Source: Escherichia phage vB_EcoS-611R1 | Length of the DNA stretch: 21,467 nucleotides | Strand: one strand, 5' to 3' | Sequence record: ON470586.1 | Shown here: positions 1 through 18,839 of the stretch, piece by piece | How positions within the stretch are numbered: the first letter of the stretch is position 1 | Layout: each line of letters begins with the position of its first letter | Made by a program: the position numbers and the translations under genes | The notes under the pieces: model-generated | Databases searched by the model: none | The model's input: only the letters and a program-made list of their open reading frames with translations | Told to the model about the DNA's origin: nothing

Positions 1-300
1 TCAGTGAGTGACCTCTTCAAAGGTACAGTTAAAATCGGTATACATGGCATTATCCGAAATGCTCCACTCCCTGCAGACAACCCGGACAGCCCTGTTGTGT
101 TTTGGCGGACGCCACAAAAAAGCACGAACCCCGGCATGACGGGATAAAAAACTGTCCAGCGCGGCACGGGAATATTCATCCGTGACACGAAATACCGGTT
201 TAAACGTTTTCAGATCTGCATTCAGACCACCAGCCCGTCGCTGTTCATATCCGTCACCGAACTTTACCGTAATAACAGATGGCTTTCGTGTCGTCTCCAT
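1..300 (-). CDS. phage minor tail protein M (lambda gpM-like)
   Basis: ORF 1..387 ends with a stop at 1-3. The internal Met (METTRKPSVITVKFGDGYEQR...) gives a 99-aa product that resembles lambda gpM from memory, and it sits directly downstream of the tape measure gene. The longer N-terminal extension has no RBS logic. Confidence 0.7.
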   Translation of the reverse strand: METTRKPSVITVKFGDGYEQRRAGGLNADLKTFKPVFRVTDEYSRAALDSFLSRHAGVRAFLWRPPKHNRAVRVVCREWSISDNAMYTDFNCTFEEVTH

Positions 301-334
301 CCCCTCGCGGGGGATCCAGTTAAAAACTTCAGAC

Positions 335-3300
335 TCAGGCACTGCATAATCCTCCGTCCCGACGTGATGACTGCATAATTGACACAACCCTGCTGTCGAT
401 CAGATCCACCAGTCCCCTGGCTGAGCGCGCATCTATCTCGCCATTGCTCCCTTGATTCTGAATGCTGATGTGATACACGGGAGAATAAACAAATCCACCG
501 CCACCATTCACATTTCCAATGGCCCTGACCCCAAGAGAGCCGTCCGCTGCCCGTGTCAGTGGCATGATTGCTTCAGGCCCGGCCTCGCCCATCAGCCCGG
601 CACCTTTCGCAAAAGCAAAATACGTCGGGGTATCCACAATGGTGTTACTGTAAGCACTCAGATTTGCCGATGTATAAACACCACCTTTTGCGTTTGCCAC
701 TGCACCGGAAAGCCAGTCGCCGACTGTACCAAGCCATCCTCCGGCACCGGACATGCTTTTGGAAAGTGACTTCAGCCCGTTAACGATGGCAGCGTTCATC
801 AGAATTTTTGAAACTTCCTGGAGAATTGAACTCCCCCAGTTTCTCCAGTCCACAACATTTCCGGCCAGTGCATCGGAAATATTTGATACCAGTCCGTCCA
901 TAGTGGAAACGACAGCATCTGCCGCCTGCGAAGCATAATCGGTGGCACTGTCTGCCCAGTTGGTCAGCCCCTCCTGGAGTCCTGCATTCCAGTTATTACG
1001 TAAAGCATCGGCCTTTGCATAATAATCCTGCTGATCGCTGAGACGCTCTTCCAGATATTTTTCATTCAGAGATTTTTCCTGTTTCCACAGGGCTTCTTCA
1101 ATTTCTCCGGCCTGATACTGTCTCAGCAGCTCGTTATTTTTCTGCTCAAACTCCTGCCGGATGCTCCACATTTCCTGAAGTCGTTCACGCATCCGTGAGC
1201 CTTCACCATATCCCAGTAACTGAGCCTCATTTGATGCTCTGACACTGGCATTACTGTCCGCCAGACTGCTCTCATACGCAGCAAGCTGCTCACGAATCTT
1301 TTTCTGGTCGATGAGTGCTGCATTCTGCAAAAGCGTTTTTTTCTGCGCTTCTGACAGGGTTGATAATTCGCCCTGGCTGACCTGATATTTCATCTTAGCC
1401 AGTTCAGTATTCTGCCCTGCCAGTGCTATTTGCTCTTTTTGCTGTTTAATCAGTTGCTTATAAGTATCTTCTATTTTTTCCGCTTCGGTCTTTTTATGCG
1501 CTTTGGGTTTATTTGCCTGGTTATTTCGCCATGCATCCAGTGAGTTATTTATATAATTCAGTCTTGCTGTCTGATACGCCTCTCCCACAAAGCCGAGATC
1601 ATCCGCAGCATAACCCAGGCGGGCACGCTCACGAGCTTCCCCCTTCAGGCGGGACAGAGCCAGTTCGCGCTCGCTGTTATTCAGTGCGGTCTGCTGTTTA
1701 TCATCCAGGGTTGCCTGTGGTAGCCGTAACGGTACATTCACCAGCCCCTGTCGCTGCTGAAGTAATTCATTACCGAGCCCGAGAAGGCGATTAAACTCGG
1801 TATGCTGCCCATTCATGATCAACAGGGACTGATACGCTTTGTTTTGTTCCGCTGCCTGTTGACGGATCAACGCCACCCGTCGCTCCTCCAGCCCGGCAAG
1901 CACATCCTGAATGGATTGCGCTTTGCCCTGCATTTGAGTGAGGCGAGACTGTTCAACTGCCAGTTGATTTGTTGCTTCTGCAAGCCCTTCTGTGACAGTT
2001 TTTACCGACGTCATGTGGTTAATCATAAAACCGTTATCGGTTGTCCAGCCCGGGTTTGCCAGCACATACTGATAGCCAGCAATTTTTTCCTGTAAGGATT
2101 TAATCTTACTTTTCTGCTCGTCAATTAACCTGTTTTGCTCCTTCAGTGCCTGTCGCGTCTTTTCCTCATTATCTGACGCTTCAGGAAGCGACATTGCCGA
2201 CGTTTTCTGGCGAATTTCGTCGATTGTTGCGGCATACTGTCGTGCAGATTCTCTGGCCTGCTCCTGATTCTGATACATCGTGTACCAGGCCGCAGCCCCC
2301 AGCATGACGAGTCCCGGCACACCACCAACCAGCCCCAGCGCGCCACTTAATAAACGACTCCCCACTGACGTAACATTATTCAGCGTTGTCTGTGCCGCTG
2401 TTCTGGCCGCAATATTACGGGTAAGTGACACCTGGGCAGCTGTCAGCTTCGCTTCTGCTGCGGCCTGCCTTTCGGTACCGCGAGCAGCAACAACCGCCTG
2501 TTGCGCACGATAAACCGCCGCACGCGCCCTGGCGGTTGCTATCTGTGTCCCCCGAAGTTGCACTTCAGCAAGAGCCACTTCGTTTCTGGCTGCAGTAATT
2601 AATCCGGCAGTTGCAGATCCAGCAGACGACGCCATATTGCCAAAATATCGGGCTACCCCGACGGCAACCAGAGCACCAGCAGCGGTTGCCACGGTGTCAA
2701 TATTGCCTGCAATACCATTCAGCACACCGGAGAGCGTCTTCGTCACTCCGCTTGCCTCGTTCGCACCACCAACCCAGGCCATAAAGGCGTTTTCAACTTT
2801 GGTTGCAGAGGATGAAACCGTATCAGGCATTGCTGCATATTCATCACGCAACGCCCCAAGCTGACTAATCAGTGCAGGAACAACCTTATCAGCGGTCAGT
2901 TTTCCGTTATCCGCCATGGCCTTCAGATCCTTACGGGCAACCCCCATTCCCGCAGCCAGCGCACGAATAACACGATCGCCGTTCTCATTCACCGAGTTAA
3001 ACTCTTCACCGCGCAGCACTCCCTGCGCCAGTGCCTGACTGAACTGCGTGATCACCGAACTGGCTTCTGCTGTACTGGCACCGGATAATTTCAGGCCCGT
3101 GGAGATCGCCTCGGTGACTTTCAGTACCTCCTCAGAACTGTAACCATACTCCCGCATGGAAGCTGCAGAACGGGCAAAAAGGCTGGCGTTATCAGAAAAC
3201 GCCGTCCCCGTTCTCTGGCTGATCGCCATTAATTCACGCTGTGATGACTGAAAATCATCACTGGACTGTGAGGCCTGCTTCAGACGGGCATTTACTGAAT

Positions 3301-3580
3301 TCCACTCATCGGCGAGAGAAATAAGATGACCGGTAGCAAAAGCCCCGGCAAATGCCCCCGCCATGTTCAGTGCCGAAGATTTAGCTGTATTTATCTGATC
3401 CGTCACTTCTGCCAGTGCACGCCGCATTTCACGGGATGCAGCAGCGGACTGTCGGCCTCCGTTCTGCATGGTACGGTAGTAATCCTGCCCCATACGCGAA
3501 GCCCGGGAGATCTCTGACTGGAATGACCGGGAATTTGCCGAGATTTTAATAATCAGTTCACGTAATGTCGCCACACTCAT
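335..3580 (-). CDS. tail tape measure protein
   Basis: 1081-aa ORF, Ala/Gln-rich with long predicted coiled-coil stretches and a Gly-rich C-terminal region. It lies between the G/T chaperone pair and M, and has RBS GGAGA upstream of the ATG at 3580. Confidence 0.9.
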   Translation of the reverse strand: MSVATLRELIIKISANSRSFQSEISRASRMGQDYYRTMQNGGRQSAAASREMRRALAEVTDQINTAKSSALNMAGAFAGAFATGHLISLADEWNSVNARLKQASQSSDDFQSSQRELMAISQRTGTAFSDNASLFARSAASMREYGYSSEEVLKVTEAISTGLKLSGASTAEASSVITQFSQALAQGVLRGEEFNSVNENGDRVIRALAAGMGVARKDLKAMADNGKLTADKVVPALISQLGALRDEYAAMPDTVSSSATKVENAFMAWVGGANEASGVTKTLSGVLNGIAGNIDTVATAAGALVAVGVARYFGNMASSAGSATAGLITAARNEVALAEVQLRGTQIATARARAAVYRAQQAVVAARGTERQAAAEAKLTAAQVSLTRNIAARTAAQTTLNNVTSVGSRLLSGALGLVGGVPGLVMLGAAAWYTMYQNQEQARESARQYAATIDEIRQKTSAMSLPEASDNEEKTRQALKEQNRLIDEQKSKIKSLQEKIAGYQYVLANPGWTTDNGFMINHMTSVKTVTEGLAEATNQLAVEQSRLTQMQGKAQSIQDVLAGLEERRVALIRQQAAEQNKAYQSLLIMNGQHTEFNRLLGLGNELLQQRQGLVNVPLRLPQATLDDKQQTALNNSERELALSRLKGEARERARLGYAADDLGFVGEAYQTARLNYINNSLDAWRNNQANKPKAHKKTEAEKIEDTYKQLIKQQKEQIALAGQNTELAKMKYQVSQGELSTLSEAQKKTLLQNAALIDQKKIREQLAAYESSLADSNASVRASNEAQLLGYGEGSRMRERLQEMWSIRQEFEQKNNELLRQYQAGEIEEALWKQEKSLNEKYLEERLSDQQDYYAKADALRNNWNAGLQEGLTNWADSATDYASQAADAVVSTMDGLVSNISDALAGNVVDWRNWGSSILQEVSKILMNAAIVNGLKSLSKSMSGAGGWLGTVGDWLSGAVANAKGGVYTSANLSAYSNTIVDTPTYFAFAKGAGLMGEAGPEAIMPLTRAADGSLGVRAIGNVNGGGGFVYSPVYHISIQNQGSNGEIDARSARGLVDLIDSRVVSIMQSSRRDGGLCSA

Positions 3581-13214: not shown

Positions 13215-13219
13215 GTGCT

Positions 13220-15057: not shown

Positions 15058-15273
15058 TTACTCTCCCCGTGCAGCCTTACGCTTGTCTTCTCTGATTTTG
15101 AAGTACAGATTTGTCAGATAAGTCAGGAAGCCCAGAACCAGACTCCCCAGTACACCAATCGCAGCCCACTGTGACGGACTGACCTGATCAAGCCACTGTA
15201 AAAACCAGTAGCCAGCACTGCCTGCGGAGGTGCCGTAGGCAATGCCCGTTGAAATTTTGTCCATGGATTTCAT
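15058..15273 (-). CDS. pinholin (phage 21 S-type class II holin) with dual-start motif
   Basis: [71 protein letters not shown] closely matches my recollection of S21/EssD-type pinholins, including the Met1-Lys-Ser-Met4 antiholin/holin dual start. The ORF-track extension to 15372 starts at GTG and is unlikely to be translated. Confidence 0.85.
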
Positions 15274-15410
15274 AGCCTCACCTCCGCAGCGAACGGATGG
15301 CGTAGTTATAAGGGGAGCGAAAAAGAAAGAATGCGCGATTGCGCAATATGGTAACGTCAGGGTATTATCCACTGGCTGAATAGATCACTTCACGTTTTTT
15401 GTTCCTTGCC

Positions 15411-15439
15411 GCCCGTATCCATATGCGGGCTTTTTTTTT
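15411..15439 (+). terminator. plus-strand intrinsic terminator
   Basis: Hairpin GCCCGTAT-CCAT-ATGCGGGC (8 bp including one G-T pair) followed by T9 on the plus strand. Confidence 0.5.
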
Positions 15440-15445
15440 GCATGT

Positions 15446-15475
15446 AAAAAGGCCCCAACACATGTGCGTGGGGCC
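15446..15475 (-). terminator. minus-strand intrinsic terminator between the tRNA cluster and the holin
   Basis: Minus-strand RNA: stem GGCCCCA/UGGGGCC around an 11-nt loop, followed by UUUUU (plus-strand AAAAA at 15446-15450). Confidence 0.45.
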
Positions 15476-15675
15476 TGAGAGTATACATGGTTTCAGTCAA
15501 CTGCATGGTGCCGTGTGCCTCCCGGTGAATTCAGTACCAGCACCTGAATCCGCGATTATCCCATATACCTACTCGCTGATTGCCCCTCCGCACAGGGGGA
15601 TTCACCATGCCAGTTTCTTTTGACAAACTCCCCGCAAAACAGACAACTGTCAACCGTCTGAATTGTGAGACATTT

Positions 15676-15700
15676 AAAAAAAGGCCCGCAAAAGCGAGCC
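15676..15700 (-). terminator. minus-strand intrinsic terminator after the tRNA cluster
   Basis: Minus-strand RNA: GGCUCGC-UUUU-GCGGGCC with one U-G pair, followed by U7 (plus-strand A run 15676-15682), about 15 nt downstream of the 3' end of tRNA-Arg(UCU). Confidence 0.55.
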
Positions 15701-15714
15701 GGGAAAAATAAGTC

Positions 15715-15791
15715 TGGCGCGTTGTACTGGATTCGAACCAGTGACCGATTGCTTAGAAGGCAATTGCTCTGTCCGGTTGAGCTAACAACGC
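15715..15791 (-). tRNA. tRNA-Arg (anticodon UCU)
   Basis: Hand-folded 77-nt cloverleaf on the minus strand: acceptor GCGTTGT/ACAACGC, D stem GCTC/GAGC, anticodon stem ATTGC/GCAAT with loop CTTCTAA, T stem ACTGG/CCAGT with loop TTCGAAT, then an encoded CCA. Confidence 0.8.
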
Positions 15792-15804
15792 AGGGTACAG
15801 ATAA

Positions 15805-15881
15805 TGGACCGCCATCGAGGACTCGAACCCCGCGCAACCAGCTTCGAAGGCTGGCGCTCTATCATGATGAGCTAATGGCGG
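15805..15881 (-). tRNA. tRNA-Arg (anticodon UCG by hand fold)
   Basis: 77-nt cloverleaf: acceptor CCGCCAT/ATGGCGG, D stem GCTC/GAGC, anticodon stem CCAGC/GCTGG with loop CTTCGAA, T loop TTCGAGT, encoded CCA. The D loop lacks the usual GG, so the call needs tRNAscan-SE confirmation. Confidence 0.65.
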
Positions 15882-15888
15882 TATGTGA

Positions 15889-15965
15889 TGGTGGCCCTTG
15901 CTGGATTTGAACCAGCGACCTGGCGATTATAACTCGCTCTCATCATTTAGCTAAAATGGCTGGGG
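15889..15965 (-). tRNA. tRNA-like element, ileZ/ileX-like, possibly degenerate (pseudo-tRNA or atypical tRNA-Ile UAU)
   Basis: The 3' half matches tRNA-Ile2 (ileX) as I recall it (..GGTCGCTGGTTCAAATCCAGCAAGGGCCACCA). The anticodon arm is about 4 nt short relative to ileX (GAGTTATAATCGCC) and the acceptor 5' strand (AGCCATT) mispairs at two positions. Confidence 0.4.
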
Positions 15966-16085
15966 GAGTGATGATACATCAGTCACATTAAACATGAAAA
16001 CAAATCGTTTTAGGTGAAATACAAAAAGAATAGTGATTAAATATCAAATGGATATGCTTTAAATCTAACCACAGTAAGGACGAGT

Positions 16086-17030
16086 ATGATTTTTCTCAAG
16101 AATGGCGAAAGTTTTATTCGCGTGAATGACTGGGCAGAAATTCAGGCGAGAGAGTCTTACTATCCCAAATTAGAGTTAAATGATCAGCAACTCTCTGACG
16201 TTTTTGGTTACTACGATGACCTACCAGAGGAAATTCCATGTGGAAAATCAAATTGCCGCAAAGGGCATAAAAAGGGATTTCTGGTAGTTACGAAAGAAGG
16301 ATTTGAAACGAATATCGGCCATGTATGTGGAACTAATGTTTTTGGTATAGCATTTGATAATTTAGCAATAGAACTTTGCAGAAAAGCAGATTTCCATCGC
16401 TTACTTACCGCACTTAAAGAGGCAAAAGATGATATTTTTAGCTATTACAAACTCAAAGCCAAAATCGAATCTGGGCGTCCATCACTAACTGAGGTTGCTC
16501 ATAGAATACTTGACATGAAAGACCCTAAAATCATCGGGCGTGCGGCTTATCAAACATTGAAAAAGATGGCTGCTTCTGGTGATGGGCGTGTTTTCCGCTC
16601 AAGATTAAAAAATACAGAAGAGCTAGAACTGGACGAAATTATGTCCCAGAAGCAAACAAGCGACTCAGCTCCAAAAGTTAACAACAAAAACAAAACCGTA
16701 AATGAACTTATTGGGGTAATACAATACCCTGAATGCTTGCTGAATGATTATGACATTGCTCTTCTTTATGAAAGAGATATAAAAATGGTTCTGGAAAAAT
16801 TAAACAAATGTACCCCAGATGAATTGACTGAAAGAGAGGTGTTGTCTTTTGGAATAAAGGTTTCAAGATTAAGAGAACGCTTTAACTTTGTTCAGGAACG
16901 CTTAGAAAAATCCAGGGTTTTTGCAACAAGAGAAAACCTTAAACCTTTACGTGCATTACTTAACATTCAGAAATCTGTAAGCAATAAAGACAAATTACTA
17001 TTTAAGAAATTTATGGAAAATTTACCATAA
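16086..17030 (+). CDS. uncharacterized protein (314 aa), AT-rich cargo gene in the Q-to-lysis moron hotspot
   Basis: Opposite strand to every flanking phage gene, with RBS AAGGA 7 nt before the ATG and a hairpin terminator right after the stop. Hand-counted GC is about 38-42% against about 52% in a capsid gene sample. The N-terminus has a Cys/His cluster (PCGKSNCRKGHKKG...NIGHVCG); the rest is Lys/Glu-rich and likely helical. I recognise no family. Confidence 0.75.
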   Translation: MIFLKNGESFIRVNDWAEIQARESYYPKLELNDQQLSDVFGYYDDLPEEIPCGKSNCRKGHKKGFLVVTKEGFETNIGHVCGTNVFGIAFDNLAIELCRKADFHRLLTALKEAKDDIFSYYKLKAKIESGRPSLTEVAHRILDMKDPKIIGRAAYQTLKKMAASGDGRVFRSRLKNTEELELDEIMSQKQTSDSAPKVNNKNKTVNELIGVIQYPECLLNDYDIALLYERDIKMVLEKLNKCTPDELTEREVLSFGIKVSRLRERFNFVQERLEKSRVFATRENLKPLRALLNIQKSVSNKDKLLFKKFMENLP

Positions 17031-17032
17031 TT

Positions 17033-17056
17033 AAAAAACCCGCTATAAAGCGGGTT
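17033..17056 (-). terminator. tR'-like intrinsic terminator (bidirectional hairpin)
   Basis: Stem AACCCGCT/AGCGGGTT (17037-17044 with 17049-17056), loop ATAA. On the minus strand it is followed by U6, a strong terminator for transcripts from the promoter downstream of Q. On the plus strand it follows the 314-aa gene's stop with a weaker T-rich tail. Confidence 0.6.
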
Positions 17057-17097
17057 CCGTGTTAATTTTTATATTGGCGCTAAACCCCATAATTAAA

Positions 17098-17127
17098 ATG
17101 ATACAAGACAATTTTATGCAAAGTCAA
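17098..17127 (-). promoter_or_regulatory. candidate late promoter (PR'-like) downstream of the Q-like gene
   Basis: On the minus strand: -35 TTGACT (plus 17122-17127), 18-nt spacer, -10 TATCAT (plus 17098-17103). It lies about 45 nt after the Q-like stop and about 40 nt before the tR'-like terminator, predicting a short roughly 60-nt leader RNA as in the lambda PR'-qut-tR' unit. Confidence 0.5.
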
Positions 17128-17166
17128 GTCGGTTGCTCAAAAATCTCTCCGCCAAAGCTGTTCAGA

Positions 17167-17982
17167 TCAGTAACTCGTTGCCTTCTCAAATTCTCTAGCC
17201 GCATGCCGCTCACCTTGATGCAGGATATCAATCAATTTTTCATAGAATGGTTTCCAATTGCGCGACCATGAAGACTGGTGCAGATCGGGAATGTATATTT
17301 GAATAGCTCGATGAACATTAGCTGATTTGATAGATACGAATCCCTTTCCACTACAACGCTCGCAGATTTTAAACACTGGCACACCACGCTCGCTTGTGGC
17401 TTTGCGGTCCAGTACCTCTCCCTTTCCACCACAACGACACCTGGCACTTATCACTCCCTTCCCTTTACATACATCGCAAACGACTGGTACAACTTCCGTT
17501 ACCTCTGTCCATTTTTCCCAGTCTGACGGTCGAACAGCACGGGAGCGACTGGCCCAATATGGTGCTTTACCCCATGGGTATGAAACCTTACGAATGACCT
17601 GCTTACGGGGTGTTAGTCCGGTACCACTGCAACTATGGCATGTTACGCTGGTGGCCGCCGATCGGGAATACTCAGCAAAAGCAAACTGAGCCAGTACCAG
17701 CATACACCAGCCAAATTCACCACCAGCTGCTTTACGCACATTCTTCGGTGCAATTTCCATCGCGTGACGCGCCAGCGCCTGGACTGCCATCTGCTCATCA
17801 GTCTTGCTGATACCGGCCTTCCCGAAGAAGGCCGCCAGGCCAAACCGCTCACGATTACTGGTGGTACCAATAGCCGCCATAACATCGGTGCCTGTAAGAC
17901 GTTCCGGAGAGGTTCCTTTCACATCGTCGCCGATATACATTCCCTGAGGACTGAAGTATTTTAGCGATGCCTCAAGCTTCAT
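17167..17982 (-). CDS. Q-like late antiterminator candidate with four CxxCxGxG zinc-finger repeats (QuuQ/YdfT-like)
   Basis: 271-aa ORF with the motifs CHSCSGTG, CDVCKGKG, CRCGGKG and CERCSGKG. It sits immediately upstream of the PR'/tR'-like unit and the lysis genes, and its start overlaps the stop of the preceding gene. The family name is from memory. Confidence 0.55.
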   Translation of the reverse strand: MKLEASLKYFSPQGMYIGDDVKGTSPERLTGTDVMAAIGTTSNRERFGLAAFFGKAGISKTDEQMAVQALARHAMEIAPKNVRKAAGGEFGWCMLVLAQFAFAEYSRSAATSVTCHSCSGTGLTPRKQVIRKVSYPWGKAPYWASRSRAVRPSDWEKWTEVTEVVPVVCDVCKGKGVISARCRCGGKGEVLDRKATSERGVPVFKICERCSGKGFVSIKSANVHRAIQIYIPDLHQSSWSRNWKPFYEKLIDILHQGERHAAREFEKATSY

Positions 17983-18839
17983 TATTCACACTCCCCAACC
18001 AGATTGAGAATGACCGCTGCACCGTCGTCTTCCATGCATTCACCCTTACCACTTGCCAGAAACCAGCGGCACACCTCCACGGCTTCAGCGCGTGTCACCG
18101 GTTTGATGGTTGCCAGCAATTTTTCAAGGTAGCGCTCGCGGTCATATACCGATTCGTGATGCTCAGAGTAACCAAACTCATCGCCCTGTTCTTTAGTTGC
18201 AGTGTGGCGAACACTGTAGAGCCAGTCCCAGTAAACGAACTCGCGAACAACATCAGACAGCGTATAAGGCTCAGGCAGCACATCGCGATATCCATCAACA
18301 AATGCCCGACGCTGTTCATCAATTTCGTTCATGCGGCTGCCGCCAATGCTTCCGGCTTTTTTCTCTGCCGCAGTCCAGCCCCAGAGATGATCGTTGATAA
18401 ATTTCTGGGAAGACCTGATGACCCGCTCTGCTTCCACATCTTCGAGCGCTGCTTCATAGCTACCAAACGTAGCCCTGACTGATGCCGCTTTTTTGATGTT
18501 CTCCCGGGCGTTCCTGATAACCTGCGCAGGGTTATCCATGCCGATGATGCCGAACGCAACCTGGAAAGGTTCGTAACCATTCGCCAGCAGATAACGCGAA
18601 TAGCGTTCCTGAGCCTCTTTTGGGGAAATTTTAATTTTCACCAGCGCAGCCTCAGCAGCATCCAGATGTGCGGGTTCGTTCAGACGGATAACCTCCAGCA
18701 CCCAAAGATAAGCATCAGTCTGCTTATGCCCGGTGATTCTCCGTTGCTCTGGCAGGGGCTTGATGTTTGCGAGGGCGGAGCTGTACGCTGCCGTCGGGAT
18801 GGTGAATAGTGCTTTATGTTCGTTATTATCAGTACGCAT
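17982..18839 (-). CDS. hypothetical protein (285 aa)
   Basis: ORF translationally coupled to the primase upstream and the Q-like gene downstream (shared-nucleotide stop/start overlaps). No motif recognised. Confidence 0.6.
   Translation of the reverse strand: MRTDNNEHKALFTIPTAAYSSALANIKPLPEQRRITGHKQTDAYLWVLEVIRLNEPAHLDAAEAALVKIKISPKEAQERYSRYLLANGYEPFQVAFGIIGMDNPAQVIRNARENIKKAASVRATFGSYEAALEDVEAERVIRSSQKFINDHLWGWTAAEKKAGSIGGSRMNEIDEQRRAFVDGYRDVLPEPYTLSDVVREFVYWDWLYSVRHTATKEQGDEFGYSEHHESVYDRERYLEKLLATIKPVTRAEAVEVCRWFLASGKGECMEDDGAAVILNLVGECE

Follow-up and report, generated by a model that had tools for sequence, protein, structure and literature searches.

We analyzed the protein family and the genetic surroundings of an open reading frame (ORF) of 314 amino acids (aa) in Escherichia phage vB_EcoS-611R1. 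The stretch of DNA under study, here called the window, comprises 21,467 nucleotides (nt) of the sequence record ON470586.1, and all coordinates refer to this whole stretch. In RefSeq the product of the ORF is labelled as a hypothetical protein. An earlier note, made from the letters of the window alone, had pointed to this ORF as a candidate for a novel accessory or defence function, and its placement of the ORF was confirmed in position, plus-strand orientation, length and possession of an own ribosome binding site. The ORF lies, as described there, between a tR'-like terminator and the tRNA and lysis genes, and the respective elements were mapped on both sides (Table 1). Its neighbour on the right is the gene of the antiterminator Q, with which it is convergent. 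On the left, in the direction of the late transcript, follow tRNA genes, a small RNA (sRNA) gene and the holin gene.

The GC content of the 314-aa gene was 36.3% (30% at third codon positions), compared with 47-52% in the neighbouring Q, replication and lysis genes and 50.1% in the whole window. The AT-rich, foreign look of the gene was thereby confirmed, although the hand-counted value of 38-42% in the earlier note turned out to be too high. The gene had also been described as the only one on the plus strand in about 9 kb. This holds for approximately 8.3 kb, from position 13215 to the end of the window, but not for 9 kb, since a YfbU-like gene of the same orientation lies 2.9 kb to the left. 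The dedicated bidirectional terminator assigned to the gene was found in part. A hairpin does abut the stop codon and was folded on both strands (z -3.0 and -3.7), but only on the late (minus) strand is the terminator canonical; on the plus strand, the gene's own, just UU follows the hairpin.

Table 1. Coordinates of the 314-aa ORF, its parts and the neighbouring features in the window (ON470586.1)
Feature	Position	Strand	Remarks
314-aa ORF, orphan CCHC zinc-protein family (putative)	16086..17030	+	ATG start; RefSeq WP_000576620.1; phrog_7003
Conserved N-terminal beta-rich putative zinc domain, aa 1-90	16086..16355	+	Predicted ligands encoded at 16239-16328
Hypervariable, mostly helical region, aa 91-314	16356..17027	+	AlphaFold; identity and entropy per segment
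Shine-Dalgarno sequence AAGGA	16076..16080	+	5 nt 5' of the ATG of the 314-aa ORF; read from the sequence
GC-rich hairpin abutting the ORF stop	17035..17058		tR'-like canonical terminator on the minus strand, partial on the plus strand; terminator scan
pR'-like late promoter, TTGACT-18-TATCAT	17127->17098	-	Between the Q stop and the terminator; promoter scan 10/12
Q antiterminator, 271 aa	17982..17167	-	Convergent with the 314-aa ORF; PF03589, Pfam E-value 4.6e-51
Variable cassette, 2.0 kb	15308..17338		Unalignable between the window and L058; comprises the sRNA, the tRNAs, the family gene, tR'/pR' and the Q C-terminus
Degenerate third tRNA	15892..15960	-	At the edge of the AT-rich block; Rfam 32.6 bits, barely over the gathering score
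Two tRNA-Arg genes (UCU, UCG)	15715..15881	-	Past the ORF in late-transcript direction; ARAGORN; Rfam 70.1 and 54.1 bits
STnc100-like sRNA	15440..15639	-	Between the tRNAs and the holin; Rfam STnc100 128.9 bits (gathering score 47)
P21-type holin	15372..15058	-	Lysis gene
YfbU-family gene, 179 aa	12675..13214	+	AT-rich (approximately 40% GC), antisense; flanked by lysis genes and the HNH/terminase module
285-aa protein, function unassigned	17982..18839	-	phrog_6204, E-value 2e-182; between the toprim/primase gene and Q

The 314-aa protein belongs to a large family that is structurally an orphan and remarkably regular in its genomic placement. The protein corresponds over nearly its complete length to phrog_7003, a PHROG annotated without a function (E-value 2.4e-118; residues 1-313 aligned to positions 1-308 of the 309-position profile). 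In an exhaustive profile search relatives were found in 550 clusters at 50% identity, nearly all of about 300 aa and matching over their full length. They are carried by phages and plasmids of Enterobacterales, Vibrio, Pseudomonas, Burkholderia, Acinetobacter and Ferrovum. No mention of the protein accession was found in the main texts of the literature.

Conserved positions were determined in a deep alignment of 68 family members sharing 19-48% identity with the window protein. The family is marked by the N-terminal motif CGxxxCxxxHxxG[YF]LVxTxxGxxTNIGxxCG, which is present in the window protein together with Y43 and N284. The residues Y43, C52, C57, G64, G78, C81, G82 and N284 were invariant in all 68 members; H61 and F86 were each conserved in 67 and N76 in 65 of them. 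A cluster C-x4-C-x3-H...H-x-C had been noted before, and its residues C52, C57, H61, H79 and C81 are indeed present, but H79 is not conserved: the column was occupied by H (21 members), N (21) or K (19). H79 was therefore left out of the putative zinc site. The alignment suggests that the likely metal site is of the CCHC type and composed of C52, C57, H61 and C81.

Conservation is distributed unequally over the protein. The mean pairwise identity was 42% within aa 1-90 and only 20-23% elsewhere. A first AlphaFold prediction with 14 close homologs reached a predicted local distance difference test (pLDDT) score of 59.8 and was redone with the 68 diverse sequences. The AlphaFold2 model from the deep alignment had a pLDDT of 95.8 and a predicted template modelling score of 0.85. 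In this model the N-terminal domain consists of strands at residues 2-6, 9-13, 36-43, 64-69 and 74-78 and a helix at 79-86, so that a strand-strand-helix element surrounds the predicted zinc ligands, followed by long helices. The Lys/Glu-rich helical C-terminal region of the earlier note is seen in the model as well. Within aa 91-314 a single Asn (N284) was invariant, and residues 190-203 form a disordered loop of low confidence.

Despite the quality of the model neither the protein nor its fold could be assigned, in line with the earlier note. The window protein had no accepted match in Pfam and NCBIfam, only phrog_7003 in PHROGs and no match at E <= 10 in PADLOC-DB 2.0.0. When the 68 family members were searched against PADLOC just two single-member, chance-level matches were obtained, and Pfam likewise gave no family. 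A match to DUF6852 (E-value 0.054) was discarded as too weak, and single-member Pfam matches of the N-terminal domain, such as that to the RIG-I C-terminal domain (E-value 0.024), were taken as chance. Profile searches of the PDB sequences with the 14-sequence, the 68-sequence and the N-domain-only alignment gave a best E-value of 0.07. The best structural matches of the AlphaFold model, in the PDB with Foldseek (E-value 0.9) and among the BFVD viral structures (E-value 0.048), were not significant. An HNH or beta-beta-alpha-Me nuclease was considered for the element at residues 64-86 and rejected. Its first strand lacks a conserved His, column 79 holds H, N or K, and conservation outside the predicted zinc ligands is limited to Y43, N76, F86 and several glycines; HNH families were not matched in Pfam, also when the N-terminal domain was searched alone. 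The Pfam searches of the protein, the family members and the N-terminal domain did not detect a helix-turn-helix or a known DNA-binding domain. Domain fusions were not observed, as the N-domain-only search led to truncated fragments only. HepS was rejected as the identity of the protein. A constellation of conserved acidic or His residues suggestive of catalysis was absent from the 68-member alignment; the typical effector of abortive infection that had been proposed is thus not evident.

The ORF is a real protein-coding gene under purifying selection. The ratio of nonsynonymous to synonymous substitutions (dN/dS) was 0.05-0.15 within allele lineages, and 0.05-0.10 when the window allele was compared with copies of 97-98% DNA identity. 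This constraint at the protein level excludes a role as a purely cis-acting spacer. One copy of the window allele (L021, 7001-7942) has a premature stop at codon 16 (W16*).

To the genomic placement of the family 77 IMG/VR loci contributed, retrieved with an 8-sequence sub-alignment and falling into 22 clusters at 80% identity; phages from GenBank were added. Two recurrent slots were recognized. In the first, represented by approximately 12 of the 22 clusters, the gene is located between holin and Q and is convergent with Q, whose stop codon lies 76-219 nt away. This arrangement was found with three unrelated Q families (PF03589; DUF1133/PF06530; PF06323 in an Ewingella prophage) and with holins of the families PF04971, PF16931 and PF05106. 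A strong intrinsic terminator of the late strand abuts the stop of the family gene in all 13 loci of this type that were examined, and in several of them a promoter-like element could be recognized on visual inspection between this terminator and the stop of Q. In the second slot the gene is antisense within the early-left operon and next to a cI-type repressor gene. Four IMG/VR clusters, Klebsiella phage ST13-OXA48phi12.2 and two Hollowayvirus phages of Pseudomonas have this arrangement. In one lineage the gene shares the strand of a cI-like gene and lies 45 nt downstream of it, an order comparable with that of rexAB. The homologs on plasmids of Vibrio, Burkholderia and Pseudomonas are stand-alone genes in heterogeneous accessory regions. 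Neither a conserved partner gene nor a link to defence islands was found among 30 same-strand neighbours.

A moron, in the sense of Hendrix and colleagues, is an accessory unit within a phage operon that is transcribed autonomously. The family gene shows two properties of such elements. First, its composition is distinct: in 20 of the 22 cluster representatives it was 5-18 GC points below its flanks, with backbones from 34 to 64% GC, the exceptions being one representative 3 points below and another 1 point above. Second, related phages differ by replacement of the cassette and by an empty slot. An accessory gene of foreign-looking composition in the hotspot between Q and lysis, as proposed in the earlier note, is in agreement with these data, all the more as relatives adjoin stx2f in other prophages.

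Replacement of alleles was most evident in E. coli. The Q type of the window is rare and occurred in 40 of 5,426 complete genomes. The exact window allele (allele A) was present in 22 of these 40, allele B (WP_062860141.1) or variants of it in 15, and at least one genome had an empty slot of approximately 500 bp. In all 5,426 genomes allele A was found 22 times, and it is nearly absent from deposited phage genomes (four matches in a tblastn search of the phage collection). A B-like variant in strain 90-3040 encodes a protein of 306 aa with only 24% identity to the window protein. A complete copy of the prophage region including the gene was also found in NZ_CP114132.1 (438,722 bp; H48/H65), a record filed as an E. 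coli plasmid in both collections; a phage-plasmid, a prophage on a megaplasmid or a wrongly assigned replicon would each account for this. The earlier note had named conservation of the gene at this position, together with a backbone-like GC content, as speaking against an accessory or defence function. With about 37 of the 40 genomes carrying some family allele at the junction, the gene is indeed no sporadic one-off. However, it never had the GC content of the backbone, the alleles are extremely divergent and empty slots occur.

The comparison of the window with the locus L058 defines the exchanged segment. By blastn the flanks were 96.6-96.7% identical on the left and 95.8% on the right, whereas the two family proteins share only about 25% identity. 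Homology to the allele-B phages resumes at position 17339, and the last 57 codons of Q (17167-17338) are part of the swapped cassette. Because these codons were exchanged together with pR', tR' and the family gene, the C-terminal part of Q and the promoter site of Q seem to move together as a single specificity module. The family alleles do not follow the Q type: an allele of 59% identity was found next to an unrelated PF06323 Q, and one of 25% identity next to a Q that is 87% identical.

In Stx2f prophages allele B is located between Q and the toxin genes. It is intact next to stxA2f/stxB2f in L095 (E. coli 2015C-4136CT1, 2513-3433), and the late transcript must cross it in antisense before reaching the toxin genes. 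In phage phi467 (L008, 5001-5875) allele B is disrupted by frameshifts into three pieces at the same site by stx2f. Together with W16* in L021 this indicates that the gene is occasionally lost by mutation.

The defence candidacy has been arrived at independently. In the DefensePredictor study (DeWeirdt, Mahoney and Laub, Science 2026, PMC13092281) Table S10 lists WP_000576620.1, which is exactly the window protein, as the representative of a cluster and as a 'Predicted novel defense gene'. The mean log-odds of this cluster were 4.67 (minimum 3.58, maximum 5.63) at a cutoff of 4, and no relative among known defence proteins was obtained with HHblits or Foldseek (PMC13092281). The sister allele WP_032207072.1 formed a separate predicted cluster with mean log-odds of 7.87 (PMC13092281). 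Validation in the wet lab succeeded for 45% of the predictions overall and correlated with the score (PMC13092281). The listed clusters thus comprise the same protein and its sister allele; mechanism, structure and slots of the family were not treated in PMC13092281. The family has therefore already been flagged computationally by others, and it is a good experimental candidate whose defence role is a predicted one.

Among characterized systems the closest parallel in arrangement is TaiEcA (orf63) of phi80, a tail-assembly-inhibition defence gene in a 'noncontiguous operon' (Nat Commun 2024, PMC11364771). Lysogens express TaiEcA constitutively and are protected by it from other phages, and expression of Q lowers its level (PMC11364771). 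Like the 314-aa gene it is a single prophage gene antisense to the Q-dependent late operon, and the annotated Q-pR'-tR' layout of phi80 is that of the window. However, TaiEcA has 204 aa and is located downstream of the lysis genes by the packaging module, not at tR'. In the window this Tai-type slot is held by the YfbU-like gene. TaiEcA furthermore has a dedicated counter-defence partner, atiEcA, whereas the 314-aa family has no conserved partner. An identity of the 314-aa protein as a Tai was therefore rejected, as homology was lacking (hhalign probability 0.06% against phi80 orf63) and no cognate partner is conserved.

BstA (PMC8585504) and the family have several features in common: both are stand-alone prophage proteins of about 300 aa for which two domains are predicted, both occur in prophages of various Gram-negative bacteria and often near the repressor locus, and in both cases the resident phage must be spared. 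The two differ in that BstA carries a KilA-N-like domain at its N-terminus and is covered by a PADLOC model; neither of these matched the 314-aa family. In addition, the self-immunity of BstA is conferred by a DNA element inside the gene, whereas the self-immunity proposed for the 314-aa gene would be transcriptional and its main slot is at Q-tR', not at cI. BstA was rejected as an identity, since among the 68 members KilA-N was not found in Pfam and BstA was not matched in PADLOC. Assuming that phage BTP1 is included in the phage collection, it was not among the four tblastn matches. Classical morons between Q and S, namely stx1/stx2 with the tRNAs ileZ-argN-argO, share with the 314-aa gene the hotspot past pR'/tR', the AT-richness and the presence/absence polymorphism. 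Those toxin and tRNA genes are co-oriented with the late transcript and Q-dependent, whereas the 314-aa gene is antisense. Moreover, morons of the stx type are unrelated cargo, while the 314-aa gene forms a homologous, hyperdivergent series of alleles.

Based on these comparisons we favour, with a probability of roughly 0.45, the reading that the 314-aa protein is a stand-alone, non-enzymatic exclusion protein expressed in the lysogen, which would be silenced at induction by head-on antiterminated transcription. This reading is supported by the constraint on the protein, the moron-like composition, the recurrent antisense slots, the allelic replacement, the conserved N-terminal domain combined with a variable remainder, the lack of a conserved partner and the listing by DefensePredictor. 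In the quiescent prophage the gene would be transcribed alone and against the direction of the late operon. Its CCHC domain may serve a common function in binding, assembly or contact with nucleic acids, and the hypervariable helical remainder may determine the target. Such a location of the specificity would explain why near-identical phages carry alleles of only about 25% identity. The product would exclude other phages from the lysogen or abort their infection. Upon induction, Q-modified RNA polymerase from pR' would pass tR' and run head-on through the whole gene, and in the relatives in the cI slot the polymerase from pL would act likewise. The head-on transcription would shut the gene off, and the phage would be spared its own product. 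Silencing by convergent late transcription is plausible from the architecture, and it has an experimental precedent in TaiEcA of phi80. In this reading we infer that the lysogen expresses the gene, that the protein binds zinc and acts against phages, that its two domains have separate tasks and that convergent transcription silences the gene. The wider proposal, that the gene is the founding native-context member of a large, structurally novel single-gene immunity family of temperate phages and plasmids with self-immunity by position, head-on below pR'/tR' or pL, we would put forward only tentatively and regard as rather unlikely.

Several observations weigh against an exclusion function. No PADLOC model was matched and known defence genes were not found among the neighbours. 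Conserved catalytic residues, a transmembrane segment or a toxin-like domain were not found in the analysis of the alignment. Upstream of the ORF the promoter scan gave no sigma-70 match of at least 9/12; the sole candidate is a weak 8/12 site within the degenerate tRNA. Selection within the lineages is strongly purifying, not diversifying. The DefensePredictor model reportedly also uses neighbouring genes, so that its score is not independent of the argument from context. The log-odds of the window allele are just over the cutoff, and the validation rate drops with lower scores. The defence label of the family is computational only, and none of the 42 validated DefensePredictor systems is a member of it (PMC13092281). 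Finally, plasmid homologs occur among genes of the antirestriction, Hok, ParA and PsiA type, which fits anti-defence or establishment equally well.

This last point leads to the best-surviving alternative, which we nevertheless consider improbable. The protein could be an anti-defence or establishment factor, made from its own promoter on entry and helping the incoming phage or plasmid to overcome host barriers, for example by binding and neutralizing a host defence or DNA-processing protein. The plasmid homologs near genes for antirestriction, zincin (ArdC-like), Hok, ParA, HicAB, an orphan methyltransferase and DUF4942, and one homolog about 6 kb from psiA, speak for such a factor, although these neighbourhoods are heterogeneous accessory regions and not demonstrated leading regions. 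A non-enzymatic binder with a hypervariable surface would suit an inhibitor protein, and allelic diversity is expected equally for counter-defence. The position in phages speaks rather for exclusion: there the gene is always antisense to lytic operons, whereas anti-defence genes are usually part of early lytic transcripts, and the lineage with the gene behind cI on the same strand implies lysogenic expression. DefensePredictor, too, classes two alleles as defensive.

Still less likely, in our view, is a lysogenic-conversion factor outside phage conflict, i.e. a host-fitness, regulatory or virulence-modulating protein such as a zinc-finger regulator of host or prophage genes, which would share its moron slots with stx, porin and cold-shock genes by chance. 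The slot between Q and S does carry non-defence cargo (stx, tRNAs), and alleles of the family are also present in Shiga toxin-producing E. coli and in clinical isolates. With an isoelectric point of 8.8 and conserved K/R residues flanking the predicted zinc domain, the protein would be compatible with nucleic-acid binding, but a helix-turn-helix or known DNA-binding domain was not detected in the searches described above. The broad range of the family, from Enterobacterales to Ferrovum, argues against a niche-specific host function, and alleles of about 25% identity in otherwise identical backbones are unexpected for a housekeeping-type regulator.

The least likely of the alternatives is a factor that regulates or insulates the late or early-left transcription of the phage itself, acting as a convergent unit or as an anti-Q/anti-N, Nun-like protein, which would keep read-through from pR' or pL off the lysis or toxin genes in the lysogen and might block antitermination of superinfecting phages. 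Its appeal lies in the position of the gene, which in late direction begins right past tR' in 13 of 13 loci of the Q slot or just inside the pL operon and which separates pR' from stx2f in Stx2f prophages, in the inclusion of the Q C-terminus and pR' in the exchanged cassette and in the high occupancy of the junction (about 37 of 40 genomes), but the phylogeny of the family does not track the Q type, homologs occur on plasmids and in Q-less slots next to cI, empty slots exist beside the same Q type, and the strong purifying selection excludes a purely cis-acting spacer.

If exclusion were the function, a widespread family (approximately 550 clusters at 50% identity in phages and plasmids of Gamma- and Betaproteobacteria) would be added to the known defence proteins, and since no fold or catalytic motif is recognizable its mechanism would be one not yet described. 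The near-identical E. coli prophage backbones with alleles of about 25% identity would then represent a natural specificity experiment. The rule of position, namely an antisense gene that directly borders tR' or sits in the pL operon, whichever Q or holin family is present, could serve as a search criterion for lysogen-expressed genes and would generalize the logic of the 'noncontiguous operon' of Tai in phi80. An allele between pR' and stx2f may furthermore bear on the expression of Shiga toxin in Stx2f prophages. Should the gene have no phenotype, the family would stay a conspicuous conserved unknown of model lambdoid phages.

Some features of the window stand beside this question. The earlier note had connected the rare codons of the gene with the adjacent tRNAs. 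Its counts of 9 AGA, 1 AGG and 6 ATA codons were exact on recount. A co-adaptation was nevertheless rejected, because 14 of 18 loci with a family gene have no tRNA and use AGA and ATA similarly, as AT-richness alone predicts. A further point against it is the location of the tRNAs on the late strand, since expression of the 314-aa gene is presumed to take place in the lysogen. The degenerate third tRNA was not called by ARAGORN; it shares approximately 85% similarity with the ileZ-like tRNA-Ile found in Stx prophages. On the strand opposite to the STnc100-like sRNA the RefSeq annotation holds a partial pseudo-coding sequence. The YfbU-like protein was ruled out as a relative of the 314-aa family (hhalign probability 0.4%). 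The 271-aa Q carries a DnaJ-type CXXCXGXG zinc-finger signature (PF00684, E-value 5e-6) between two PF03589 stretches. The gene of the phrog_6204 protein next to Q is kept in most of the related backbones; in one of them (L005) an HNH/AP2 gene is found in its place.

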